Below, piece by piece: positions 2,773 through 16,609 of a stretch of DNA of 16,853 nucleotides. How positions within the stretch are numbered: the first letter of the stretch is position 1; each line of letters opens with the position of its first letter. A program made the translations under genes and the position numbers. The stretch is from assembly GCA_037444485.1 (NCBI GenBank), contig JBBIMI010000019.1:1-16853 (forward strand), in the 5' to 3' direction. The notes under the pieces are model-generated. The model was not told the origin of the DNA and ran no database searches. It was given only the letters and a program-made list of their open reading frames with translations. Origin of the DNA: Candidatus Micrarchaeota archaeon (GTDB lineage: Archaea > Micrarchaeota > Micrarchaeia > Norongarragalinales > Norongarragalinaceae).

Positions 2773-3360
2773 CTAGTCGTTAAACGTTTCGCTGAACGTT
2801 TGCGTTTCGTAAACAAAGAATTCTGCGCCGCGCCAGCCGTTTGCAGGCAAGCCTGCTTTCAACGCCAAGTGCTCCAGAAACTCGCGCTTGTCGGGCAGTT
2901 GTTTCCAAACTTGCGGCAGGAAAGTCGCCGTTCGCCCGCGCGATCGCAGCAACACGCCCCGCTCGCGCGAGATTTTTTCCAACAATTCTTTCTCGTTAGA
3001 GTATGCTACTGGCTTCAACTCGCTCAACACGCTGATTTCGATCTCGACGCGCTTCAACTCTGCTTTCGACAACGGCGGAAAACGCGGGTCGAAAGCGCCA
3101 GCGCGCACAGCGTTTTCGACGATGTTCTTCCACAACGGCGCTTGCGCTTCAAGGCAACCAATGCACCCGCGTAGTTCGCGCGTGTCACGCAAGTGCAGCG
3201 AAACGAAAACCGCCCGTTTTTCAAAAAATTTTTTTGGAAGTGTTTTCACGATGCTTTCTTCAACGAGCGGCCTGCTGTCGAGAAAGTTTTCCAACGCGTT
3301 GCGCGCGAGCGCCAACGCAGTCTTCTGTTCACTCTCGTTCAAGAAAAACAAATTTTTCAA
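2773..3360 (-). CDS. amrA: AmmeMemoRadiSam system protein A (AMMECR1 family)
   Basis: AVFVSL...LRGCIG signature, DPRFPP, IEISVLS and ATFLPQVW...FL..L..KAG. Confidence 0.95.
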   Translation of the reverse strand: MKNLFFLNESEQKTALALARNALENFLDSRPLVEESIVKTLPKKFFEKRAVFVSLHLRDTRELRGCIGCLEAQAPLWKNIVENAVRAGAFDPRFPPLSKAELKRVEIEISVLSELKPVAYSNEKELLEKISRERGVLLRSRGRTATFLPQVWKQLPDKREFLEHLALKAGLPANGWRGAEFFVYETQTFSETFND

Positions 3361-3398
3361 CTCGAAACCAAATTTTTTAAGTCAAATTTTTTTTCAAG

Positions 3399-4244
3399 TT
3401 ACTCGAAAAACGCGTAGCAGCCGTACCCGACTACAGCTGTCTTGTCGCCTGCAGTGTCGCCTGAATTACGGTAATCGAGAAACTCGCCGTGCCAGCCTAG
3501 CTTTTTCGCGCAATGCATTAAAGCGAGAATCGCGGTCTTGCCGCAAGCTTCCACGCTTTGCGCTGCCTGCAACTCTAAAGCCGGAATGCTTTTGTTTGCG
3601 AGCGCGTCTAACGCGCGCGCTTGCTCGTAAGAGTGGTAGTGACTCAAGTCGCTTGACGCGATTATTATCGTGCGGTCGTCGCCGGCGATGGTTGCGGTAG
3701 CAAGCGCGTCACCCAACGCGTTGGGCGAGACTTCGCTTGTGAGCAAGCCAGCGAACTCGAATTTCTCGAGTGTCGTCTGCAGGAACGGCAATTGTACTTC
3801 TAGGCAGTGTTCTCGTGCGTGTGCTTCACGCGACGCGACCACGAATTGCGAGAAAGCGTTTTCTCCGCGCAGCGATAATGCTTTGACGCTGCCGAGTGGC
3901 GTAACCCATTCGCTGCAGTCCGGCTCCGCGACGCCTTGAAACAACGCGTAATGTGACGGCCCAACGCAAACTACTTTACTGACCGGGTTTTTTCCCGCGC
4001 GTTCTCGCTCGCGCAAGAGCGCGTAACCGAATCCAGCCGTAGGTCCTGAGTAAGGATAGCCGGCATGGGGTGAGACGATTGCCTTCAGTGAAGACGCGCG
4101 TTTCAAGATTTTTTGCTGGAGATTCGCGTTAGAGACAAGATTTTCTACAGTCTCGCGTAATTGTTTTGCGTCTTCCGGGTAGAAAACGCCTGCCACTGCA
4201 GGCATTCTTGGTTTACTCCTTGTTTCAAGCGGCACTTTAATCAA
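3399..4244 (-). CDS. amrB: AmmeMemoRadiSam system protein B (MEMO1 family)
   Basis: PAVAGVFYP, PHAGYPYSG, GPSH, EHCLEVQLPFLQ, ASSDLSHY, ACG, and NSGD...VVGY. Confidence 0.95.
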   Translation of the reverse strand: MIKVPLETRSKPRMPAVAGVFYPEDAKQLRETVENLVSNANLQQKILKRASSLKAIVSPHAGYPYSGPTAGFGYALLRERERAGKNPVSKVVCVGPSHYALFQGVAEPDCSEWVTPLGSVKALSLRGENAFSQFVVASREAHAREHCLEVQLPFLQTTLEKFEFAGLLTSEVSPNALGDALATATIAGDDRTIIIASSDLSHYHSYEQARALDALANKSIPALELQAAQSVEACGKTAILALMHCAKKLGWHGEFLDYRNSGDTAGDKTAVVGYGCYAFFE

Positions 4245-4439
4245 CTCGCTTAATAAACTCGCTTTTTTTCACGCGAATTCAATGTTTTTGTGTTTTTTGG
4301 TTTTGCTGGTTTTTTTGATTGTTTTCATAGAGTGTTGCACGCCTCCAGCGAGTTTAGGTTATGCTAACCCGCTCACGAAAAGATTGGGTGGAAACGAATT
4401 TAATACGTTTTACTTTCAGGGCTAGTAGAACTTTCGGGG

Positions 4440-4931
4440 TTAATAGAATTTCTGCATTTCCGAGAAGAGGCGACCTAAATTGTCGCTTTTCGATACTAAA
4501 ATAAACCTGTTTATTGAAACTGCGCGGTATTTACGCGCTTGGTTTTTTTTGTTCGTGAAACACTCTCCTAGTTCTAAAACTTTCGACGCAGGAATCCAAT
4601 ACCAATTGTTGAAGTGACTAACCTCGCTTGAAAACGCGTACCATACTTGCAAGTTGAAATAATTTCGTAGATTGCAGTATTGCTTAGTCTCACGCTCGTC
4701 AATATAAAATTGTTCGTACTTTATGGCAGGTTTTTTGTACTCGACGTCAACAAGCATGAAACCAACGCAGGGAATTAGAATCATGAAGTCTGGCCGTTTA
4801 GACACGTACTTTTTCAAAGCCTGAGAAAAACTGCTTACGTCTTGCTGAATATACCAGTAAGGAATACTGTGCTCGTCCAACCACTCTTTAAACTTTTTCT
4901 CCACCAATACCTCTTTCTCTTTTACTTCCAT
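4440..4931 (-). CDS. Putative PD-(D/E)XK-fold nuclease
   Basis: N-terminal helix E..F..WL, then KRPDF(M)IL and VDVEYK. ATG at 4931 follows a GGGGGAG RBS; the ORF track starts at GTG 4949. More AT-rich than its neighbours. Confidence 0.65.
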   Translation of the reverse strand: MEVKEKEVLVEKKFKEWLDEHSIPYWYIQQDVSSFSQALKKYVSKRPDFMILIPCVGFMLVDVEYKKPAIKYEQFYIDERETKQYCNLRNYFNLQVWYAFSSEVSHFNNWYWIPASKVLELGECFTNKKNQARKYRAVSINRFILVSKSDNLGRLFSEMQKFY

Positions 4932-4988
4932 TTCTTTTACTCCCCCCACTCTTTAAGGTAATGCAATACGCTGCTTGAAAACTAGAAT

Positions 4989-6065
4989 CTAGGTCCAGAC
5001 GCCCGGAATTTTTTCGCCGCACTTTGCGCACGCGCCGCGCTTCGCGTCAAGCGCTTCGACCCGCGATTCAAACCCAATGCGGTCAATGATTTTCGTCTTG
5101 CATTTAGGGCAGAAAGTGCCTTCTGCTTCTGGAGTGAAGACGTTGCCGACGTAAACGAACTCGAGTCCAGCGCGCAACCCGATGTCGCGCGCTTCAAGCA
5201 ACTTTTGCGGCGGGGTAGGCGGCGTGGAAAGCATTTTGTACTCTGGATAGAATGCAGTCACATGCCAAGGAATCCGCTTGTCGACGCTCGCAAGGAAACC
5301 CGCGATTTGCGCGAGTTCGTCGCGCGAGTCGTTAAAGCCTGGAATGACGAGTGTCGTGACTTCAATCCATACGCCTTTCTCGTGGAATGCGCGAATCGAG
5401 TCGAGAACTGGTTGGAGGCGGGCTTTACAAACGTCGCGGTAAAACTCTTCCCGGAATGACTTGAGGTCGATGTTGTTCGCGTCAAGCACTGGCGCGAGCG
5501 CTTCAACGCTCTCCCGAGAGTTGAAGCCGTTCGAAACGAAGACCGTCTTGAGTCCGCGCTTGCGCGCTAGTTCGAAAGTGTCACGCGCGTACTCGAACGC
5601 GATGGTTGGCTCAGTGTAAGTAAACGCGATTGACTTGCAGCCTTCCGCAAACGCGTTTTCCACGATTTGTTCAGGAGTCAAGTCGATTCCTTTTTCCGCA
5701 AGTTCGTCTAACGCGCGTGACGCTGCAACCGCGTTTTTCGCTTGCCCGCGCGCGAGGCGCGTGGCTTGCGAAATCTGCCAGTTTTGACAAAAAGCGCAAG
5801 CAAAATTGCAGCCGATGGTTGCAAGCGAGTAAATCGCTGAGCCCGGCTGGAAGTGAAACAAAGGCTTTTTCTCGATCGGGTCAACGTTCACGGCAATCGC
5901 TTTACCGTAAACAGTGAGAAACAAGCGGCCGCCTTGGTTTTTACGCACTCCGCACGCGCCGTAATTCCCGTCAACCACGCGGCAGTAATGCGCGCACGCG
6001 GTGCACTTTACAGTATTCCCGCCGAGTTTTTCGTAAAGCGCGCATTCCTTAAACAAAAAAACCAC
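4989..6065 (-). CDS. amrS: AmmeMemoRadiSam system radical SAM enzyme
   Basis: N-terminal CxxCxxxC(9x)C, DPIEKKPLFHF, radical SAM CNFACAFCQN, AFTYTEP, NIDLKSF, EVTTLVIPG, and C-terminal CPKC...CAKCG. Confidence 0.95.
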   Translation of the reverse strand: MVFLFKECALYEKLGGNTVKCTACAHYCRVVDGNYGACGVRKNQGGRLFLTVYGKAIAVNVDPIEKKPLFHFQPGSAIYSLATIGCNFACAFCQNWQISQATRLARGQAKNAVAASRALDELAEKGIDLTPEQIVENAFAEGCKSIAFTYTEPTIAFEYARDTFELARKRGLKTVFVSNGFNSRESVEALAPVLDANNIDLKSFREEFYRDVCKARLQPVLDSIRAFHEKGVWIEVTTLVIPGFNDSRDELAQIAGFLASVDKRIPWHVTAFYPEYKMLSTPPTPPQKLLEARDIGLRAGLEFVYVGNVFTPEAEGTFCPKCKTKIIDRIGFESRVEALDAKRGACAKCGEKIPGVWT

Positions 6066-6143: not shown

Positions 6144-6265
6144 TGCCGCAGGGGAGATTTGAACTCCCGACACATCGGTTTCCAATCCTCAAGCTTGAGA
6201 GAATTCTTCAGCTTCGTCTTCCCTCACAAGGAATCGAACGCTCTCCCAGGCTGAGCTACTGCGGC
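6144..6265 (-). tRNA. tRNA-Phe (GAA) with two introns: 30/31 (22 nt, 6234-6213) and 37/38 (26 nt, 6205-6180)
   Basis: Exons join to GCCGCAG TA GCTCAGCCTGGGAGAGC G TTCGG CTGAAGA CCGAT GTGTC GGGAG TTCAAAT CTCCC CTGCGGC A. Intron 1 forms a strict bulge-helix-bulge (CGTT/GACG helix, CG|A and AA|G bulges). Intron 2 forms a relaxed BHB. Confidence 0.92.
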
Positions 6266-6719: not shown

Positions 6720-6888
6720 TTTTTCGCCTTTTGTTTCCCGCCTTGTTTTTCTCTTGTTTTCCCGCTTTTTTGTTTTTTTTTGTTTTTGTTTTTTTGTTGG
6801 TTTTTTTTGTTTTTGTTTTTTTTTGTTTTTGTTTTTTTGTTGGTTTGTTTTTTTTGTTTGTTTTTTGGTTGAATTTTGTTTTGGTTGA
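6720..6888. repeat. Low-complexity T(n)G tract (A(n)C on the minus strand)
   Basis: Almost only T and G over about 120 nt (6765-6885), with units such as TTTTTG and TTTTTTGTTGG. Confidence 0.85.
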
Positions 6889-6895
6889 AAGGTAG

Positions 6896-7162
6896 TGGGC
6901 CTGCGGAGAATTCCGTTGCTTTTCTCTCTAGTTTTTCTTTCCCAATTCTTTCAATCTTTTCTTTCTTTCAATGTTTTCTTTTTTTCAAGGTTTTTTCTTT
7001 TCCTAAAAGAAAAAAGCTTCTTTCTTTTCCAAGGTTTTCTTTTTTTCCAAGAAAGAAAAGCTTTTTTCCAAGGTTTTCTTTTTTTCCAAGAAAGAAAAGC
7101 TTTATCGAACTCCGGATCTTCGCTGTGTAAGAGCGACGTCTTAACCACTCGACTACAGGCCC
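6896..7162 (-). tRNA. tRNA-Val (TAC) interrupted at 59/60 (T-loop) by a 194-nt intron (7103-6910)
   Basis: 5' exon 7162-7104 is GGGCCTG TA GTCGAGTGGTTAAGAC G TCGCT CTTACAC AGCGA AGATC CGGAG TTCGAT. 3' exon 6909-6896 is T CTCCG CAGGCCC A. Acceptor and T stems pair perfectly across the gap. The junction has a TTCG/CGGA central helix, an AT|T bulge, an AT|A loop and a 12-bp intron-closing helix. Confidence 0.9.
6981..7103. repeat. 39-bp tandem duplication plus one degenerate copy inside the tRNA-Val intron
   Basis: TTTCCAAGGTTTTCTTTTTTTCCAAGAAAGAAAAGCTTT occurs with period 39 (CCAAGG at 7029 and 7068). A diverged copy lies at 6981-7020. Confidence 0.9.
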
Positions 7163-7329
7163 TTTTTGAAGTAAAACTATTTTTTCTACAGGAAACTATT
7201 TAATCCGTTCGAAAAGCGCGAAAGCACGCGCAAAAAAGGTTTAAAAACAATGTTTCCGTAATGGTTTCCGACGTTAGTTTAGTTTTTCAGAGTTTCAAAA
7301 AAAAGAGAAAAGCGGAAGGTGGTGTTGAA

Positions 7330-7749
7330 GTGCGTAGGATAGTGTGGTTCAAAATCGGCGGGAAACACTTGCACTTGCTCAAACTGGCAGGCAGTTTCTT
7401 CATCTTCGCGGCAGTACTGATGGTCGCGTTTTCCGCGTACAAGATTTTCGTGACCGTAGACAAAGCAAATTACGCGCAAGCGCGGCCGGAAACAGTGACG
7501 CAGTTGTTCGGTTGGGGTATTGGAGCGCCTTACTCGTTCAGCGGGGAAGACTTGCTTGGAGTACTGCTGCAGCCTACCGCAGAATTTCTCTTCTGGCTCG
7601 GAGTGGCTGTAGTCGCGCTGATGGCCTACCAAAGCGGGCGAGTAGTGTTTCCAATCGAAGAATACGAGCAACGCATTTCAGAACACCACAGAGAATTGAT
7701 TCGAAAAGCAGTCGAACACGCTCGCGCGCGTAAAGCCGCGCGCCGCTGA
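7330..7749 (+). CDS. Hypothetical membrane protein (2 TM)
   Basis: Two hydrophobic helices and a charged helical C-terminus. GTG at 7330 follows a GGTGGTG RBS. The TATA at 7240-7247 argues against the ORF-track ATG at 7261. Confidence 0.75.
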   Translation: MRRIVWFKIGGKHLHLLKLAGSFFIFAAVLMVAFSAYKIFVTVDKANYAQARPETVTQLFGWGIGAPYSFSGEDLLGVLLQPTAEFLFWLGVAVVALMAYQSGRVVFPIEEYEQRISEHHRELIRKAVEHARARKAARR

Positions 7750-8794: not shown

Positions 8795-8905
8795 GACTTA
8801 CGCCTCCGGCGGCGCAACATCCGCGCCGCTAAGAAGGCATTATAATCGCAAAGAATTTAGGGTTAATTCATCCCACGACTGAACTCGTGGGATTTCTCAG
8901 CCAAA
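8533..8905 (-). mobile_element. Partial IS200-type element: left end with subterminal hairpin plus tnpA remnant; no right end seen
   Basis: Hairpin ATCCCACGA-6 nt-TCGTGGGAT at 8870-8893 lies upstream of tnpA. 8829-8905 matches 16777-16853 in inverted orientation at 75/77 nt. Confidence 0.85.
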
Positions 8906-9825
8906 CGCATTAAGAACTCTAACGTTTCCGCCAATCCGTTTTTGAAAGAGTATTCTGGTTTAAATCCAAGCACGCGCTTTGCTTTTGAAACGTCAATCGG
9001 ATTGCGTTTTGGTTCTCCACGCAATGGCTTCAAGCGCTTCACTCGCGCCTTCAAGCCCGTAAGCTCTTCAAGCGTTTCCACGAGTTCATTCACGCTCGTC
9101 TCTTCACCGCTTGCAACGTTGAAAACCTCGCCCCACGCTTTCGCGCTCTTCCACGCGAGCAGCGTCGCGTTAACGGTGTCTTTGACGAAAGTAAACTGGC
9201 GAGTTTGCTTCCCGTCGCCGTAAACAGTCAACGGCTTGCGGGCGAGAATCGCGCGCGCGAATTTTGGTATCACTGCAGCGTATTCAATGTCAGCATTCTG
9301 GCGCGGGCCGAACACGCTCGCGTAACGCAAGCTCGTAGTCTTCAAACCGTAAAGCTCGTGATAAACGCGGCAGTATTCTTCGCCAGCGAGTTTGCTTACG
9401 CCGTAAGGGTGAAGCGGGCGCGGCGTCTGCGTTTCTTTGCAGGGTTTTTCGCCTCCGCCGTACACCGAGCTGCTTGAAGCGAAAACGAATTTCTTGACGC
9501 CTTTCCTGCGCGAAGCTTCAAGCAAGTTGAGAGTGCCGTTGACGTTTACAGCGTTCGCTTCCAAGGGTGCGGTAATGCTTTTCTGCGCGCGGTTCATCGC
9601 CGCAAGGTGAAAAACAGAATTACAGCCGTCAACAATTTTTTCGACGAGCGCGTAATCGCGTACGTCGCCGACGACGACGCGCGCGCCCTTGCGTTCAAGC
9701 AAAGGCACGTTTTGTCTGCCGACGCTCAAGTTGTCGAGAACGACGACGCCGAGTCCTTGCGCAATCAATGCTTCTGCGAGATGGCTCCCAATAAAGCCAG
9801 CTCCGCCGGTAACTAAAACCTTCAT
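8863..9825 (-). CDS. NAD-dependent epimerase/dehydratase (extended SDR; UDP-Glc/GlcNAc 4-epimerase-like)
   Basis: MKVLVTGGAGFIG, FHLAA, ASSSSVYG, YGVSK (YxxxK) and GDGKQTR. The last ~13 codons and the stop come from the IS end. The ORF track starts at 9858. Confidence 0.93.
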   Translation of the reverse strand: MKVLVTGGAGFIGSHLAEALIAQGLGVVVLDNLSVGRQNVPLLERKGARVVVGDVRDYALVEKIVDGCNSVFHLAAMNRAQKSITAPLEANAVNVNGTLNLLEASRRKGVKKFVFASSSSVYGGGEKPCKETQTPRPLHPYGVSKLAGEEYCRVYHELYGLKTTSLRYASVFGPRQNADIEYAAVIPKFARAILARKPLTVYGDGKQTRQFTFVKDTVNATLLAWKSAKAWGEVFNVASGEETSVNELVETLEELTGLKARVKRLKPLRGEPKRNPIDVSKAKRVLGFKPEYSFKNGLAETLEFLMRLAEKSHEFSRGMN

Positions 9826-9902
9826 TTTTGGAAACCTGAATTTTTTTACGAAAAACACTTATTAAAATCCTATCGCAGTAAATCATGCAGTAAATCATTC
9901 AA

Positions 9903-10109
9903 TAAACCAATAAAACAAAAAATAAAAACTCAAAACAAAAAAACAAAACAAAGACAAATCAAAAGAAAACAAAAAACAAGTCAAAACAGAAAACAACAAA
10001 CAAAAATAAAACAGCAAAACAGTTAAACAAAACAAAAACAAAACAACTAAAGAAAACAAAAACAAAAACAACAAGAAAAAAATAAAACAGAAAACAAAAA
10101 CGGAAAAAG
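9903..10109. repeat. Low-complexity A(n)C tract between divergent genes
   Basis: About 200 nt dominated by AAAAC, AAAC and AAAACAG units. Confidence 0.85.
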
Positions 10110-10147
10110 ATTTTTAAAAGATTTTTTGTCACTTTTTTGTCGGAAAG

Positions 10148-11491
10148 GTGGTCGCAGTGGACTTATTAAACAAAATCAAGGCGAGGAAAGCCGCGGTGTG
10201 CATAGTCGGCGGAGGTTACGTCGGTCTTCCCAACGCCGTTTTATTCGTTGAAAAAGGTTTCGACGTTACAATCGCGGACTTGAGCGAACGCGTGGTGTGC
10301 ATGACGAATGAAGGCAAGAGCCACATTAAAGACCCGGTTTTAGAGCAAAGCGTTCCACGCGCGTTCAAGACAGGCCGCTTGCGCGCGACGATGGACGTCG
10401 CCAACGCTGCAGAAAAAAGCGACGTGATAATTATTTCTGTGCCCACGCCAACGAAAAACAACGAGCCGGACTTGAGTTATATTGAAGCTGCAAGCAAGGA
10501 CGTCGGCAAGGGACTCGCAGCTGCTGGCGGAAAGAAAGAAAAACTAGTAGTGCTCGAAAGCACTGTTTACCCAAGCGTCTGCCACACGATAATAAAGCAG
10601 ATTCTCGAGCGCGAGTCGAAACTCGCGTGCGGAAAACACTTTTTCCTCGCGCATTGTCCAGAACGCTTGAATCCAGGCGACAACGAGCACGCGGTGCGCG
10701 TTACCCCGCGAATTGTCGGCGGGGTTGACGCGCGGTCAGGCGAGTTAGCGCAAGTCTTGTACGAGTCCGTAGTTGAAGCGAAAATATTCCGCGTTTCAGA
10801 CATGGACACTGCAGAACTCGTTAAGCTCGTCGAAAACACGCAACGCGATTTAAACATTGCTTTCATTAATGAAATCGCGTTGGTCTGCGAGAAAATAGGG
10901 GTTGACGTGAAGGAAGTGATTGAAGCCTGCGACACGAAATGGAATTTTTATAAAGTTTGGCCGGGCCCGGGCGTAGGCGGACACTGCCTACCGAATAATC
11001 CGTACTACATCCTCAAGCGCGCCGAGCAAGCAGGCTTCCACCCCAAGCTCATGATGTTAGGCAGGCAAATAAACGATTCAATGATGCACCACGCAGTCGA
11101 ATTGATTCAAGACGCATTAAAAAAAGCTGGGCTCTCACTCAAAAACACTCGAATCGCTTTACTCGGAATTTCTTACAAGCCGAACGTTGACGACGTGCGT
11201 CAAGCGCCCTCACGCGCCATCGCGCAAGAACTGCGCGATAAAGGCGTGGATTTGATTGTCAGTGATCCACACGTTAACGAAGTCAATGCGAAGAAAGTGC
11301 ACGACAAGATAGTCTCGCTCGAGGAAGCGCTGAAAGCAGATTGTCTCGTTTTCCTTCAAGCGCACGACGAGTACAAGAAGCTGGACTTGACGAAAACGCG
11401 CGCGAAAGCTGTCGTAGATCTCGCGTTCTTGTTCGACGAAAAACGCATTCCGAAAAACTGTGTTTATAAACGCATTGGAAAAGGAAATTAA
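10148..11491 (+). CDS. Nucleotide-sugar dehydrogenase (UDP-N-acetylhexosamine 6-dehydrogenase, WecC/WbpO-like)
   Basis: GGGYVGLP Rossmann motif, VPTP, ESTVYP, CPERLNPG, KLVENT.RDLNIA, catalytic GVGGHCLP and GISYKPNVDDVR. A TATA-like TTTTTAAA lies at 10111-10118. Confidence 0.95.
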   Translation: MVAVDLLNKIKARKAAVCIVGGGYVGLPNAVLFVEKGFDVTIADLSERVVCMTNEGKSHIKDPVLEQSVPRAFKTGRLRATMDVANAAEKSDVIIISVPTPTKNNEPDLSYIEAASKDVGKGLAAAGGKKEKLVVLESTVYPSVCHTIIKQILERESKLACGKHFFLAHCPERLNPGDNEHAVRVTPRIVGGVDARSGELAQVLYESVVEAKIFRVSDMDTAELVKLVENTQRDLNIAFINEIALVCEKIGVDVKEVIEACDTKWNFYKVWPGPGVGGHCLPNNPYYILKRAEQAGFHPKLMMLGRQINDSMMHHAVELIQDALKKAGLSLKNTRIALLGISYKPNVDDVRQAPSRAIAQELRDKGVDLIVSDPHVNEVNAKKVHDKIVSLEEALKADCLVFLQAHDEYKKLDLTKTRAKAVVDLAFLFDEKRIPKNCVYKRIGKGN

Positions 11492-11550
11492 AAGACGGAA
11501 AAGGAAATTAAAAAGAAAAATTGGAAACGGGTTTTGAAAGGTAATTCGAT

Positions 11551-12672
11551 TTGAAAATCCTGGTTTTCAACGCCGGAAAATTCGCCAGCGTAGAAGGCGC
11601 GGTCGTCCGCTTCAAGCACTTGATTATCGAGCGAGGGTTCGATAAAATCGTGTGGGTCGACCCTGTAACTTCCCGCTCTTACTACAAGACTGAAGACCTC
11701 GACATGCGAATTCCGGAAAACGTGGTGCTCGTGCCTGGCGGCAAGTGCGCTGCAAATCCCGCGCTTGAACTAGCCGCGCGCGAGAAACACTTTCTCGCAG
11801 CTGCCAAGCGTTTCGCGAGTTGGGCGGACGCAAGTGTTTTCTACAACCCTTGGGGCACTTTCCTTGCACGCAACCACTTGAGGAAAGCCGGCGTGCCCCT
11901 CGTGTTCGACTACATTGACTTGATGCACGCATTCCGCAAGAACCCGGTCGAACGCGCGGTTGCTTGGAAGTCAACGGTTCAAGCGTTCAAACAAAGCGAT
12001 TTCATTATTGCAAGCTCGCGCAAGCTTTACGAAATCGCGTCGCGCTACAATGAAAACTCGATTTTGATTCCTAACGGGGTTGACTGCGCGAAACTCGCGA
12101 AAATCAAGCCCAAGAAAATCAAGCGTCCCGCAGTTGGTTTCGTGGGCGGCTTCGGCGATTGGGTTGACTTCGCTGCAGTAATTCCTACAGTGCGCGAGTT
12201 AAAGCACGTTCACTTTTACTTCATCGGCGACGGAGTGCAGAGAAAGTTTTTGGAGAACGAGTCGAAAGATTTGAAGAACGTTTTCATTTCAAAGCAATTC
12301 TTGCCTTACGATGAAGCGAAAGCGTGGATGGCTGCTTTCGATGCTTGCCTGATTCCCTTCAAGATAAACGAGTTGACTGACGCCGTCTGTCCTCTCAAGC
12401 TCTTCGAATACTGGGCGCTCAAGCGACCAACCATCTGCACACCGACTTACGAAATCAAGAGCATTGCAACGCGCGGCGAAACGCTTTTCGCGAGAACGCC
12501 TAGCGAGTGGACTGAAAAAATCGATTTGCTGCTGTCCGACAAGCGTCTTGCGCGAAGCACTGCATTGAAAGGTTATGTGAAAGCCAAAAAATACGACTGG
12601 CGCTTGCTTTCAAAAAAATACAGGAAGGCATTAAAGAGTGTTATAGAACTAAAATTAGAAAAACGAAATTAA
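11551..12672 (+). CDS. Glycosyltransferase, GT-B fold family 4
   Basis: IPNGVD, GFVGGF..WVD, FIGDG, D..LIPF, PLKLFEYWA and YDW. Confidence 0.9.
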   Translation: MKILVFNAGKFASVEGAVVRFKHLIIERGFDKIVWVDPVTSRSYYKTEDLDMRIPENVVLVPGGKCAANPALELAAREKHFLAAAKRFASWADASVFYNPWGTFLARNHLRKAGVPLVFDYIDLMHAFRKNPVERAVAWKSTVQAFKQSDFIIASSRKLYEIASRYNENSILIPNGVDCAKLAKIKPKKIKRPAVGFVGGFGDWVDFAAVIPTVRELKHVHFYFIGDGVQRKFLENESKDLKNVFISKQFLPYDEAKAWMAAFDACLIPFKINELTDAVCPLKLFEYWALKRPTICTPTYEIKSIATRGETLFARTPSEWTEKIDLLLSDKRLARSTALKGYVKAKKYDWRLLSKKYRKALKSVIELKLEKRN

Positions 12673-13020
12673 AAGCATGTTAAAAGCGTAATGCGGCGCT
12701 ATCATTAATGAATCATTAATGCAGCCCCATCATCTTGATGGTCGATCAGCGCAGCACTAATCAAAAACGCGCCAGAACACTATCAAAAATACTGTTGAAG
12801 AGCCCTGCAGTCAACCGAAAATACAGCCAACCGAAAACAAAGTAAAACTAAAACAAGATTGAAGACAAAACAAGATTGAAGATAAAGCTGGGTAAGAAAA
12901 CAAGCAACAAAAAACAACGTTAAAAACAAGGGGTCGAAGCAAAAAAAGTTTAAAAAACAAGAAACGACGTTGAAAAAAGTTGTAAAGCATTGAAAAAAGT
13001 GTTATAAGAGGCGTTGTAGA

Positions 13021-13962
13021 ATGTCGTTAAAACCGTTGAAGCACGTCGCGCGAAGGACGGCGAGGAAACTCGCGGCTACAGTAGCTCCATTATTGTTCAA
13101 GAAATACTTTTACCAGCGTGAAGACAAGCAAAATAAACGCGTTTCGTGGAAAGGCAAGCGCGCTGCAGTCACGTTAAGCTTCGACCCTGACTATCCTGAA
13201 GACGTGCACGCGATTCCGAAGCTTCTCGAGCAACTCGACTCGTTCGGCTTTCGCGCTTCCTTCGCTTGCGTTGGCAAGTGGGTTGAAGCTTTCCCGAAAA
13301 TTCACGGCAAGATTCTAGACGCGAAAAGCGAAATCGTCAACCACACGCTCACGCACCCGAATAACGAGTTGTTGAATCCCAGCGAGTTTTTCAACGAGCT
13401 TGACGAACGCCGCATGGAAGAAGAAATCGTTGGCTTCGAACGCGTTTGCGAAAAACTCTTCGACTGTAAGCCAGTTGGTTTTCGAAGCCCGCACTTCGGC
13501 GACTTGCATTCGCAAAGCGTTTACGACGTTCTTGAACGCCGTGGTTACTTGTATTCCAGTTCAACAAATTTAACTCGCACCGACTCGCATGGTTTTCCCT
13601 ACCACCCGTCTAAAAAAAATTTTTTGAAAAGCGCTGCGCGTGACAGCGCTTACAAACTGCTTGAACTGCCAGTAATGTCGTGCCCCCAGCATTACTTTCC
13701 CGTCTTCGACTCGTGGCACTGCTTCCGCGCTTCTCCCCCCGCGCACTTCAAGAAAGGCGAGTTCGCGCGCGTCTTCGCGCAAGCAATCGACTACGCGCTC
13801 GAGTACGGGATTCATGCAAATTTTTACTTCGACCCGCGGGACGTGTTCGACTTGAAGGACTTCACGCGAGCGCTCGAATACTTGAACAAGAAAAAGAAGG
13901 AATTGTGGGTTTCGCCCAGCGTTGAAATCGCGCGCTTTTGGCTCAATAGGTGGCATAGGTGA
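13021..13962 (+). CDS. Polysaccharide deacetylase (CE4/NodB-type)
   Basis: LSFDPD (motif 1), EIVNHTLTHP (HxxxH), GFRSP, YSSS and ELP. GAGGCG RBS. Confidence 0.88.
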   Translation: MSLKPLKHVARRTARKLAATVAPLLFKKYFYQREDKQNKRVSWKGKRAAVTLSFDPDYPEDVHAIPKLLEQLDSFGFRASFACVGKWVEAFPKIHGKILDAKSEIVNHTLTHPNNELLNPSEFFNELDERRMEEEIVGFERVCEKLFDCKPVGFRSPHFGDLHSQSVYDVLERRGYLYSSSTNLTRTDSHGFPYHPSKKNFLKSAARDSAYKLLELPVMSCPQHYFPVFDSWHCFRASPPAHFKKGEFARVFAQAIDYALEYGIHANFYFDPRDVFDLKDFTRALEYLNKKKKELWVSPSVEIARFWLNRWHR

Positions 13963-14015
13963 CTACACTCGCACGGATTTGCAGTCACCTGATTGTTATA
14001 ACTTTACCCTGATTG

Positions 14016-15034
14016 TTATGACTTTACTCCAAATCCGCGCCAGCTTTTGCCGAGAAACGAAGTGACGCGAATGTTCTTCAAGCCAGCGCGCTTGAACCAA
14101 CCGAGAAATTCCTCGCGCGTGTAATAGTTGTTCACTTGCGTGGATAGAAAGTCGAACGAATCAGCGTGCTTGACGCGGAAAGGGAAATTCGCGTAGTACT
14201 TGAACGGCAAGCGCTCCGCGAGGCATTCAACCCGATTTTCTTGAAGAACTTGTACAACAAATTCACTGAATGGTAGAGCAACGCGGGCAGGACGCAGAGC
14301 GCGTAAAGCACTTTAAAAGGCAAGTGCTTGGCGACCGCGTGAATGCCTTCCATCACGCGCGTTTTGAAGAAACGGCCTTCGCGTCCGTAAACCCAAACAA
14401 AAATCTCGTCGCCGCTGCGCAGCAGTCGCGTCAGCGCGCGGAAGCCGCCTTCAGGCTCAGGCAAGTGGTGTAACACGCCGATTGAAAACACGAAGTCAAA
14501 CTTTTTTTTTAGTGGCGGGTGCAGCAAGTCCGCCTGCACTACGTGCGTCAGCGCGAAGGGTGCGAGGTTGTCGCGCGCAGCCTCGACGGCTTCACTCAAG
14601 TCCAGCGCGACTACCTCGGCGCCGTACTTTGCGGCGTAAAAAGAGTGGCGGCCGAAGCCAGCGCCAGCGTCGAGGACGAGCTTGTTTTTGAAGAACGCTG
14701 GTTTGAGCGGGTGCACGTAGTTCAAAAAGTTTTTTTCGTATTCTGGATGCATTTCGCGGAAGGTTTTCCACTGGAATCCGAAGCTCGCGCCGGTCTTCAA
14801 CTGGTGGGTTGAGCTTGCCAGCGTTACGCGACGCATTTTTTTGGGCAAGCGGTTCGCGTGCTTTTCCAGAAACTCTTTGTGCTTGCCTACGAACTCGTCG
14901 AACAAGTCGTCTGAAAGCAAGAGCGGAATCGAGTTGATTACTGGAAACCAGCGCCCGCACGCGCATGATAGGATGCCTTCAACAACGTCGCGTTTGAAAC
15001 TCGCGGGATCGAGTTTTTTTCGCGCGCACGCCAA
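14016..15034 (-). pseudogene. Class I SAM-dependent methyltransferase with a partial N-terminal Trm112-like domain, frameshifted at ~14220
   Basis: EGILSC.CGRWFPVINSIP, SFGFQW, VLDAGAGFGR, FDFVFSIGVLHH and WVY. One missing base at GCC(C)TC restores NALAERLPFKYY...DSFDFLS...WFKRAGL. The N-terminus looks truncated (in-frame stop at 15061-15059). Confidence 0.85.
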
Positions 15035-15063
15035 AAAAACGCTAGCGAAAAAGTGAAGTCAAC

Positions 15064-15078
15064 CGAAACCTTTAAAAA
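15064..15078 (+). promoter_or_regulatory. Archaeal BRE/TATA promoter (CGAAACC TTTAAAAA)
   Basis: Matches the BRE plus TTTAWAWA consensus. It sits 29 nt before the structured element at 15107, with no plus-strand ORF directly downstream. Confidence 0.55.
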
Positions 15079-15106
15079 GGAGGCGCGCATGTATAGTTGC
15101 TTGCTT

Positions 15107-15247
15107 GGGCGCGCGCGGGATAGTGACCCGTGAAGATTTCCTAGTAAGGCAACGTCGCGGGTCGTTCTCGGCGCTAGCAGCGAAAACACGGCGAAATACC
15201 AGCGTGAATTCGTTGGTTTGCGCGGCGGATGCGAACGGCGCGCGCCC
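15107..15247 (+). ncRNA. Candidate structured non-coding RNA of unknown family
   Basis: A perfect 10-bp terminal stem, GGGCGCGCGC/GCGCGCGCCC, encloses two long hairpins. Five G-U pairs favour the + strand, and a promoter lies upstream. Confidence 0.55.
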
Positions 15248-15346
15248 CTTCCGCGCGAAGAAAGAGTTTTAAGCAGAGTAAACCATATTAGAGCTATATA
15301 AAAACTGCCACATTAAAAACTGTTTCTGAAGCATTCTGAAGCAATT

Positions 15347-16609
15347 TTGCGGTTGATTAGATTGACTCAATTCGATTCGTTAAAAAAGAAAATTCTCGAC
15401 AAGACCGCGCGAGTGGCGTTCGTGGGACTAGGCAAGATGGGCTTGCCTTCAGCGCTTTTCATGGCCGAAGCCGGCTTTACAGTAACCGGAATAGACGTCA
15501 ACAAGCGCGTTGTCGACGCGGTGAACGCAGGCAAGATTCCTTACTTCGAGCCGGGCGCTGAAGAAGCGCTGGCGCGCGTGAAAACGCGTTTCCGCGCTAC
15601 GACGGATTACGCGCAAATCGCGAACGCGGACGTGGTGCTCTGCGCGGTTCCAACAATAATCACGCCCAGCAAGCAAGTCGATTATTCGATAGTCGAAAAA
15701 GCTTTTCTGGAAGCAAGCAAATACCTTCACCCGAACACGCTCGTGGTTTTCGAAAGCAACGTCACGCCCGGCGTTACTGAAGGACTCGTTCTCAACGCGC
15801 TCGAATCGCGGGGTTTAAAGCATGGTAAAGATTTTCTGCTCGCGTACGTGCCGATTCAAGGCAAGGCAGGCAGAATGTTTAGAGACTTGAAGGAATACGA
15901 GCGCGTAGTGGCGGGCGTCACGCCCGAAGCGCGCGAGCTTGCGGAACTCTTTTTCAAGCAAACTGGCTTTAAAACGCTGCTCGCGTCGTCATGCAAAGTC
16001 GCGGAACTCGAAAAACTTTACACCAACATTTACAGAGACATTACAATCGCCGCTGTGAACGAACTCGCTACTTACTGCGGAAAACTAGGCATCGACGTGC
16101 ATGAAGTCATCAAGTTCGCGCGCTTGATTCCCGGCGTCAGCATTCCAGAGCCCGGCATCGGGGTGGGCGGCAACTGTCTTCCAGTCGACCCTTACTTCCT
16201 GATTCACGACTGCAAGCGCGTTGGGGTGGAAGCCAAACTCGCGAAAACCGCGCGCGAAGTGAACGACTCGCGACCCGCGCTGGTTGCGGAGAAGATACTC
16301 GAAGCCGCGCGAAAGCACAAAGCCAAACGCGTCGTGCTTCTCGGAATCGCCTTCAGGCCGGACACGCACGAGACTGCCTACTCGCCCGCGCTCGAAGTGT
16401 ACAAGCTCGTCGCGAAAAAAATTTTGGATGTACGTGTTTTTGACCCGCTGGTTGGCAGCGAAGCCCTCGCGCGCTTGGGCGTGAAGGAAGCGAGCGAGGA
16501 CGACTTAAGCAAGGCCGACGTTTTCTTTGAACTCGTGCCGCACGCGGTTTTTGCAAAGACGACGGCGCTGCAAGGCAAGCGAATCGTTAAGCTGGGCGAA
16601 CTTACGTAA
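15347..16609 (+). CDS. Second nucleotide-sugar dehydrogenase (UDP-glucose/GDP-mannose dehydrogenase family)
   Basis: GLGKMGLP, VPT, ESNVTPG, AELEKLYTNIYRD, GVGGNCLPVDP and GIAFRPDT. TATA (TATATAAA) at 15295-15302. The start could instead be TTG 15362. Confidence 0.93.
   Translation: MRLIRLTQFDSLKKKILDKTARVAFVGLGKMGLPSALFMAEAGFTVTGIDVNKRVVDAVNAGKIPYFEPGAEEALARVKTRFRATTDYAQIANADVVLCAVPTIITPSKQVDYSIVEKAFLEASKYLHPNTLVVFESNVTPGVTEGLVLNALESRGLKHGKDFLLAYVPIQGKAGRMFRDLKEYERVVAGVTPEARELAELFFKQTGFKTLLASSCKVAELEKLYTNIYRDITIAAVNELATYCGKLGIDVHEVIKFARLIPGVSIPEPGIGVGGNCLPVDPYFLIHDCKRVGVEAKLAKTAREVNDSRPALVAEKILEAARKHKAKRVVLLGIAFRPDTHETAYSPALEVYKLVAKKILDVRVFDPLVGSEALARLGVKEASEDDLSKADVFFELVPHAVFAKTTALQGKRIVKLGELT

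Follow-up and report, generated by a model that had tools for sequence, protein, structure and literature searches.

Introns in the T-loop of tRNA genes, carrying relaxed splice motifs and served by a splicing endonuclease of the epsilon2 type, are already established for Micrarchaeota, and the gene described here is not new in kind. The closest described system is pre-tRNA-Cys(GCA) of 'Candidatus Micrarchaeum acidiphilum' ARMAN-2, a member of the same phylum, with a site at position 59/60, a relaxed helix–bulge–helix (hBH) motif and an epsilon2 EndA (Fujishima et al. 2011, PMC3239211; Hirata et al. 2012, PMC3488258). The gene under study, encoding tRNA-Val(UAC), resembles it in these respects and is located on the minus strand of a stretch of 16,853 nucleotides (nt; hereafter the window), which is contig 19 (JBBIMI010000019.1) of the genome of a 'Candidatus Micrarchaeota' archaeon (GCA_037444485.1; label G000; 0.96 Mb, 58 contigs, rated 95% complete). 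Positions without a prefix are window coordinates. Unlike the intron of ARMAN-2 pre-tRNA-Cys, this intron has a body consisting of a dispersed repeat, was probably gained recently within the genus, and is known here from DNA sequence alone.

At 194 nt, and at 228 nt in the tRNA-Arg(GCG) gene of the same genome, the introns exceed the range of 11–129 nt given in the 2011 survey of Chan, Cozen and Lowe (PMC3218864) and belong to the size class in which an apparent intron proved to be two transcripts, so that the question of joining in cis or in trans is a real one. tRNA-Asp of Aeropyrum pernix likewise has a long insert (121 nt), both halves on one strand, and a bulge–helix–bulge (BHB) motif followed by a long stem; a strong promoter with a factor B recognition element and TATA box (BRE/TATA) is located mid-insert, the stem is G/C-rich and the halves meet at 37/38 (PMC3218864), whereas the insert described here has no TATA-like motif, an A/U-rich stem, the site 59/60 and a 3' piece of only 14 nt. 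The permuted tRNAs of Thermofilum pendens and Cyanidioschyzon merolae have the same 59/60 junction, a 3' piece of 14–17 nt and a BHB motif, but they are circularly permuted, with the 3' piece upstream, while the order is normal here (PMC3218864).

Families of transposed tRNA introns are known from Thermoproteales (Fujishima et al. 2010, as summarised in PMC4090602); the figures reported for Thermoproteales and Asgard are 28.3% of 272 intervening sequences and almost none, respectively (10.64898/2026.10.13.758758). As in those families, similar intron sequence is present across tRNA types, and relatives without the introns exist (PMC4090602). Unlike in those families, the repeat is also found outside tRNA genes, the host is a representative of DPANN, and the endonuclease is of the epsilon2 rather than the (alpha-beta)2 type. 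A recent gain at an orthologous locus, of a sequence traceable to a repeat outside tRNA genes, would be the trace needed to explain the arrival of an intron.

The favoured reading, to which a probability of about 0.78 is assigned, is that of a working tRNA-Val(UAC) gene with one recently gained cis intron, about 194 nt long, in the T-loop at 59/60. The analysis yielded the gene anatomy, the splice motif, the enzyme gene, the paralogs and orthologs, and the repeat family. The first-pass annotation of this DNA had placed the two exons with perfect pairing in the acceptor and T stems, and both the coordinates and the pairing were confirmed: the joined exons are recognised by ARAGORN (score 120.6) as a tRNA-Val(tac) whose acceptor stem has 7 bp, whose T stem has 5 bp and whose T-loop reads TTCGATT, and removal of the insert restores a canonical cloverleaf. 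Twelve perfect Watson–Crick pairs connect the 3' exon with the 5' exon; since the chance of such a match, by our own arithmetic, is about 4^-12 per position, or about 2e-5 over 400 positions, this pairing is not accidental. The cut can be written from the sequence as 58/59 or 59/60, because T flanks both ends of the insert; judged by the bulge geometry, 59/60 is the likelier. Within the insert, no match to an Rfam family attains the gathering score, and no C/D-box words were seen there by eye.

Standard scanners were predicted to miss the gene, and they do: within the window it was reported by ARAGORN neither in the default mode nor with anticodon-loop introns of up to 400 nt allowed, and the Rfam tRNA model gave no report at the gathering score of 29, with a partial match of 25.5 bits over 7096–7162. 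In a BHB-guided deletion scan, each candidate that combined a 4-bp central helix with an outer or an inner one was excised, and the remaining sequence was passed to ARAGORN for scoring; at this locus, only the 194-nt deletion yielded a tRNA. Single deletions in 52 control region-strands surrounding other copies of the repeat yielded none, the ARAGORN intron mode being left out. By its sequence, the locus is a real tRNA-Val(UAC) gene interrupted in the T-loop by an unusually long intron, and the gene is probably functional.

Both exon–intron junctions are present on contigs of the probable source run and are therefore real. One contig covers 7086–7500, with the 5' exon and the first 18 nt of the intron, and another covers 6875–6995, with the 3' exon and the last 86 nt, both with 0 differences. 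No contig crosses the repeat core (6995–7086), and the length of 194 nt is therefore provisional and rests on the original assembly. The check covered the probable source run, X1, together with X21, X22 and X2; nothing was present in X21 or X22.

The splice junction is as first described, with G53-C61, the AT|T bulge, the TTCG/CGGA helix and a 12-bp closing helix. The T stem (49–53/61–65) is closed by G53-C61 and can be extended by pairing of U54–G57 with CGGA, located four to seven nt before the intron end; the resulting UUCG/CGGA helix includes one G-U. At the 5' splice site, A58,U59|A-A-A faces two A's, forming a 5x2 internal loop, after which the 12-bp helix (7100–7089 with 6929–6918), also containing one G-U, begins. 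The hBH half is thus present, namely, a 4-bp central helix beside the exon helix and a 3-nt bulge with the 3' splice site, while no inner helix adjoins the central helix, as the strict hBHBh' form would have. One canonical helix–bulge–helix half combined with a loop corresponds to the relaxed hBH, or bulge–helix–loop (BHL), form, and the tRNA-Val(UAC) intron is classified by its predicted pairing as a relaxed intron of the EndA type whose position, 59/60, is non-canonical. The minimum free energy (MFE) of the 267-nt precursor folded without constraints is -67.9 kcal/mol (z -2.8); the fold constrained to the cloverleaf and the hBH motif has -65.4 kcal/mol, 2.5 kcal/mol above the minimum, and the closing helix then forms by itself.

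Genes for both splicing enzymes were found in the genome. All Pfam endonuclease matches are located in one frame, which encodes 388 amino acids counted from the start codon and has its domains in the order N, N, C, C. Residues 13–388 align with PDB entry 4fz2_A (E 6.8e-128), and Y236, H251, K282 and the loop lysine K161 face identical residues; 4FZ2 is the three-unit epsilon2 EndA of ARMAN-2, for which the residue roles are given in PMC3488258. Relatives of this EndA have up to 77% identity; of the 80 listed, 74 come from assemblies with the titles Micrarchaeota/Micrarchaeia, Micrarchaeaceae, Bilamarchaeaceae or Norongarragalinales, and six from assemblies titled Aenigmatarchaeota (3), Nanoarchaeota (1, 46–49% identity), plain 'archaeon' or a bacterial bin. 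The alignment identifies the protein as a single epsilon2-type EndA, a type able to cut relaxed motifs. The ARMAN-2 enzyme was reported to cut in vitro not only a strict canonical intron but also that of pre-tRNA-Cys(GCA), a relaxed hBH intron at 59/60 (PMC3239211), a breadth attributed to a lineage-specific loop (PMC3488258; PMC12397907). By analogy, the predicted motif of tRNA-Val(UAC) is of the substrate type shown for epsilon2 EndA. The RNA ligase RtcB is also encoded (PF01139, E 1.7e-149, G000:C30).

Analysis of the tRNA gene set by the deletion scan over 43 candidate regions gave 41 tRNA models, including eight uninterrupted ones and 33 with one or two predicted introns; several anticodon assignments in this set are uncertain. 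Genes for Val tac, cac and gac are present in one copy each. An intact tRNA-Val(TAC) elsewhere had been suggested as a point to check, and none was found in the genome rated 95% complete, either by the scan or by BLAST of the 5' exon, which matches only this locus and Val(CAC). The 642 long open reading frames (ORFs) contain 2,818 GTA codons, 12.4 per 1000 codons, and the sole Val(UAC) gene is therefore needed. Roughly four in five tRNA genes of the host are interrupted, and many of these go unreported by standard scanners, which means that inventories of such genomes understate their tRNA sets.

T-loop introns were also found in the genes for Val(CAC), Arg(GCG), Gln(UUG) and probably Ile(GAU) (Table 1). 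The five helix variants all pair with UUCG, differing only in A or G opposite U, and the five introns all start with one to five A's, with one C among them in Gln, followed by AAGCTTTT. The Val(UAC) intron is not the longest in the genome, being exceeded by that of Arg(GCG). In all eight T-loop cases seen, namely, these five and the genes for tRNA-Ala in G037, a tRNA in G014 and Val(CAC) in G031, the 3' exon is located 46–228 nt downstream on the same strand.

The spliced sequence coincides in 72 of 73 bases with the uninterrupted Val(UAC) genes of two sister genomes, G023 and G009; the identity of the 5' exon is 58/59, and the 3' exon equals their last 14 nt exactly. The Val(UAC) genes of G023, G009 and G015 adjoin a homolog of the window ORF 7261–7749 (63–66% amino-acid identity), and the locus is therefore orthologous. 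Among 23 loci of relatives matching the 5' exon, there are 14 uninterrupted Val(tac), six uninterrupted Val(cac), one uninterrupted Val(gac) and two interrupted genes. A comparison of intron length in relatives had been proposed, and it showed that none of the 14 Val(tac) genes found carries the Val(UAC) intron. The intron is probably a recent gain in the genus, to judge from this distribution, a loss in all the other sampled members being less parsimonious.

Of the two interrupted loci, one is a Val(cac) gene of G031 (L036), in which this T-loop site is occupied by an unrelated strict BHB intron of 56 nt. The other is a gene of G037 (L037/L150) for a tRNA with G3:U70, probably Ala; its T-loop intron of 59–60 nt, two counts differing by one base, starts with the repeat seen in the Val(UAC) intron. 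A class II tRNA gene of G014 (L147) has a 46-nt T-loop intron, and G002 (L148) contains a gene resembling one with a T-loop intron, of which the 3' exon was not found. The pattern of a T-loop followed by the repeat start matched in 13 of the 68 genomes of the order, six times in the host and once in each of 12 others, with eight matches for the reversed control. The 12 matches in relatives comprise the T-loop introns with a 3' exon in G014 and G037, the intron-like gene in G002 and nine that resembled chance or coding sequence; the sixth host match (C11) also resembled coding sequence. The uninterrupted Val(tac) genes of G015 (L031) and G020 (L032) are followed, at distances of 153 and 243 nt downstream, by a second 12-nt stretch complementary to their T stem and acceptor strand, which could belong to a neighbouring Val gene or be a stray 3' piece.

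The intron body was analysed for its internal structure and its distribution in the genome. The 39-bp tandem duplication described previously was recovered by Tandem Repeats Finder (TRF; period 39, 3.0 copies, 82% matches, score 166, 6976–7102), and the first two units are identical. Growth by slippage, as then proposed, holds in part: in comparison with the 78-nt intron of the Val(CAC) paralog, the Val(UAC) intron has gained a perfect 39-nt unit and A-rich modules, but its body is not private low-complexity DNA, as had been assumed, being a member of a genome-wide repeat family. BLAST of the intron against the host genome gave 104 segments in 36 clusters. Twenty dinucleotide shuffles of the intron gave 2–108 segments with a maximum of 67.1 bits, which was used as the threshold; 19 of the 35 non-self clusters exceed every shuffle, with 68–164 bits. 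The other 16, at or below 67.1 bits, were rejected as family members, including the Glu(UUC) intron and an insert in RtcB, which are similar only by eye.

The family is not confined to tRNA introns. Eight of the 19 strong copies are located in other tRNA genes, three in the rRNA region of contig 12 and eight directly behind stop codons. In the rRNA region, one copy is within the 16S match (C12:24333–24418), one within the 23S match (C12:18382–18470) and the third just past the last reported 23S segment. The 16S match, L139:11764–14722 on contig 12, has 2,959 nt against a model of 1,478 positions, and the 23S is in three pieces (L139:6289–10366 on the same contig), which implies insertions in the rRNA genes that amount to at least about 1.5 kb and may be spliced introns or expansion hairpins. 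All copies in tRNA and rRNA genes are oriented like the gene that contains them, and in most of those in tRNA genes the first bases of the repeat are also the 5' end of the intron. The repeat unit consists of a U-rich arm, a short loop and an A-rich arm, an arrangement capable of forming a hairpin. Outside this genome there are few strong matches: one of 98.7 bits in G005, and the T-loop introns of G037, G014 and perhaps G002. No paper on this repeat was found in the literature.

All eight strong intergenic copies start not more than 8 nt from, or overlap, the stop codon of a co-oriented ORF; the genes ending there include rpoB', ftsZ and corA, and a TAA stop often overlaps the first bases of the repeat. 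These copies may act as terminators or 3' hairpins. Their interpretation as mRNA introns was rejected, the flanking ORFs being complete and separate according to Pfam (RpoB''/RpoB'/RpoA', two FtsZ, CorA/EamA, KH/TopoVI-B).

Table 1. Coordinates of the tRNA-Val(UAC) gene, its splice motif and intron, the other T-loop introns of the genome, and the intergenic repeat copies
Feature	Position	Strand	Remarks
5' exon, tRNA positions 1–59	7162–7104	-	59 nt; partial Rfam tRNA match and ortholog identity; acceptor 5' strand, D arm, anticodon arm with UAC, variable loop, T stem 5' strand, T-loop nt 54–59
Intron at position 59/60	7103–6910	-	194 nt; A-rich on the RNA strand; units of the dispersed hairpin repeat
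3' exon, tRNA positions 60–73	6909–6896	-	14 nt; U60, T stem 3' strand, acceptor 3' strand, discriminator A
Central 4-bp helix, exon strand U54 U55 C56 G57	7106–7109	-	pairs with 6912–6915
Central helix, intron strand CGGA	6912–6915	-	followed by the 3-nt bulge A,U|U60 (6911, 6910, 6909) holding the 3' splice site
Closing helix, 5' arm, intron nt 4–15	7089–7100	-	forms in the constrained fold
Closing helix, 3' arm, intron nt 175–186	6918–6929	-	from sequence and constrained fold
Two identical 39-nt tandem units, intron nt 1–39 and 40–78	7026–7103	-	a degenerate third unit follows
T6-C-T4 tract in the intron	7005–7015	-	possible partial terminator (putative role)
A/T-rich upstream region	7171–7203	-	possible promoter (putative); TTAAATAG and AAAATAG motifs
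Val(CAC) gene	G000:C4:21527-21377		homologous intron of 78 nt at 59/60; helix strand CGGG
Arg(GCG) gene	contig 1		T-loop intron of 228 nt, CGAG; also a strict canonical intron of 49 nt
Probable Ile(GAU) gene	contig 5		T-loop intron of 140 nt, CGAA
Gln(UUG) gene	contig 14		T-loop intron of 93 nt, CGAA
Intergenic repeat copies (G000)	C5:27459, C6:2309, C6:11675, C13:10103, C16:9118, C29:6637, C29:7601, C29:8052

In the case of a cis-spliced intron, the gene would be transcribed as a precursor of about 267 nt, in which the T stem would stack on the U54–G57/CGGA helix, with the 3' splice site in the 3-nt bulge and the 5' splice site in the 5x2 loop; a single epsilon2-type endonuclease would cut both sites, and RtcB would join the exons. 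The intron body would have originated as a copy of the dispersed A/U-rich hairpin repeat, enlarged later by the 39-nt tandem duplication. The single precursor transcript, its cutting and its ligation are deduced here entirely from the DNA.

A number of findings weigh against this course of events. The 5' splice site is outside a canonical 3-nt bulge, and an adjoining inner helix is missing. The unconstrained MFE fold keeps the acceptor, D and anticodon stems and has neither the T stem nor the central helix; as a model, it neither backs nor rebuts the splice motif. The deletion scan demands a 4-bp central helix by construction, and its outcome is no evidence of helix enrichment. The tract T4CT3CT2 is located right after the 5' exon and T6CT4 at intron nt 89–99, and T5+ tracts occur within 60 nt after 14 of 26 tRNA genes of the genome; in view of such tracts in the intron and of the repeat copies at the stop codons of eight protein genes, some transcription may end inside the intron. 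The RtcB reading frame is broken twice in the host, by two short insertions, which must themselves be removed. In a search of sequencing runs, the sole run truly containing the stretch was X1, a DNA run, probably of the source sample; the other 19 of the 20 rows, with shares of 0.05–0.07, were taken as low-complexity words. Finally, in the 2011 survey, with its introns of 11–129 nt, the sole long 'intron' outside tRNA-Trp proved to be two adjacent transcripts (PMC3218864).

Such an arrangement of two adjacent transcripts is the strongest of the alternatives, although it is considered unlikely here. Transcription of the 5' half would stop in the U-rich beginning of the insert, a second promoter within the insert would drive the 14-nt 3' exon, and the two RNAs, annealed through the 12-bp helix and the UUCG/CGGA helix, would be cut and joined in trans, possibly in a mixture with splicing in cis. 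The precedent is A. pernix tRNA-Asp, once regarded as containing a 121-nt 'intron' and described as produced mostly as two adjacent same-strand transcripts with a BHB motif and a 14-bp stem (PMC3218864); the closing helix is as long as in split tRNAs (12 bp), but it is A/U-rich and not G/C-rich. Early termination of the 5' half would agree with the T-rich tracts at intron nt 6–16 and 89–99, with the T5+ tracts behind tRNA genes, and with the position of all eight strong intergenic copies at stop codons, where terminators are expected. On the other hand, the 16S and 23S genes contain repeat units, as does, with lower similarity, the RtcB reading frame, and the polymerase must therefore read through them.

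As regards a second promoter, a TTTAAA loop resembling a TATA box is present in some repeat copies, as in the Arg(GCG) intron, but the Val(UAC) insert contains only two TA steps (TTTTAGG, CTAGAG) and no TATA-like motif, including its last approximately 90 nt, where the promoter for a leader of at least 22 nt would be expected. The upstream regions of 25 tRNA genes gave scattered TATA-like words and no motif at a fixed position by which the insert could be scored. The 78-nt Val(CAC) intron would leave little room for a terminator, a promoter and a leader, and the halves are co-oriented and adjacent in eight of eight T-loop cases. Trans-splicing was named by the first-pass annotation as a real alternative; the precedent and the U-rich tracts bear this out, but the evidence leans against it.

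Inactivation of the gene by insertion of the repeat into the T-loop, with GUA codons read otherwise, is very improbable. It would agree with the nature of the insert, a copy of a dispersed repeat absent from the Val(UAC) genes of the relatives, and with a 5' site that is not a canonical bulge. However, the exons are intact, with 72 of 73 bases as in orthologs described as working; no other Val(UAC) gene was found to read the 2,818 GTA codons of the long ORFs; Val(CAC) and three other single-copy tRNA genes keep the pairing of the insert, and all of them would have to be dead; and the host enzyme is of a type reported to cut exactly this motif (PMC3239211). Least credible of all is an assembly artefact, in which the exons were chimerically joined to repeat DNA or the repeat number is wrong: the uncovered repeat core, its word depth of 400–940 against about 25–33 on the flanks, and the identity of the two 39-nt units allow for an error that could alter the length of the intron, but not its existence, given that both junctions are on source-run contigs without differences, that no contig joins exon to exon, and that a paralog on another contig has the same architecture.

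Concerning the origin of the cis-spliced intron, the repeat could, as a tentative and rather doubtful proposal, be a mobile, self-structured intron element, whose own U-rich/A-rich hairpin supplies the inner helix. The repeat start would then mark the 5' splice site, and the 3' tail would pair with the target, namely, UUCG of the T-loop or AAGG in RtcB. The copies behind protein genes would serve as a reservoir, with recent entry into tRNA T-loops, anticodon regions, rRNA genes and the RtcB mRNA. If true, this would make visible at the DNA level a route of arrival of archaeal endonuclease-spliced introns, a route described as open in the 2026 Asgard tRNA census.

The first RtcB insert, of 51 nt (L158:1353–1403, contig 30), has a strict hBHBh' motif with the 4-bp helix AAGG/CCTT, two outer and 12 inner pairs, and its removal restores the conserved motif GHEGYGFPIGG. 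It resembles the repeat by eye, with 52.7 bits, within the range of the shuffles, and was not counted as a family member. The second insert, of about 26–41 nt (about L158:1476–1518), is located between GGVG(Y) and DINCG and has no clear borders. Endonuclease-spliced introns in an archaeal protein gene have a precedent in cbf5 (PMC2738675); if spliced by the endonuclease, the RtcB insert would be an intron of this sort outside Crenarchaeota, and one located in the gene of the ligase itself. RtcB is encoded in one open frame in 13 of 24 relatives; in seven (G001, G004, G007, G011, G012, G027 and G029), the frame has about 940–990 amino acids and the family model is split at about position 50, in an intein-like manner. 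The TopoVI-B gene of the host (G000:C6:2358–5762) carries intein and LAGLIDADG domains.

The 3' end of the tRNA-Val gene is followed directly, on its downstream side, by a low-complexity tract of 117 nt (6766–6882) that is rich in A and C on the tRNA strand and in which TRF detected periods of 16, 22 and 43; no T4+ tract occurs on that strand in the first 60 nt. Another interrupted tRNA gene occupies 6144–6265 on the minus strand, with an Rfam score of 43.6 bits and an intervening sequence of about 41–53 nt in the anticodon region. It was assigned to Ser(tga) by ARAGORN with introns allowed and to Arg(cct), with an over-long variable region, by the deletion scan; it may also contain a second intron. 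The tRNA pair is closely followed downstream by a trio of genes for AMMECR1, Memo and a radical SAM protein (2773–6065, minus strand), and the part of the window from 8863 to 16609 is filled by sugar-nucleotide and glycosyltransferase genes.

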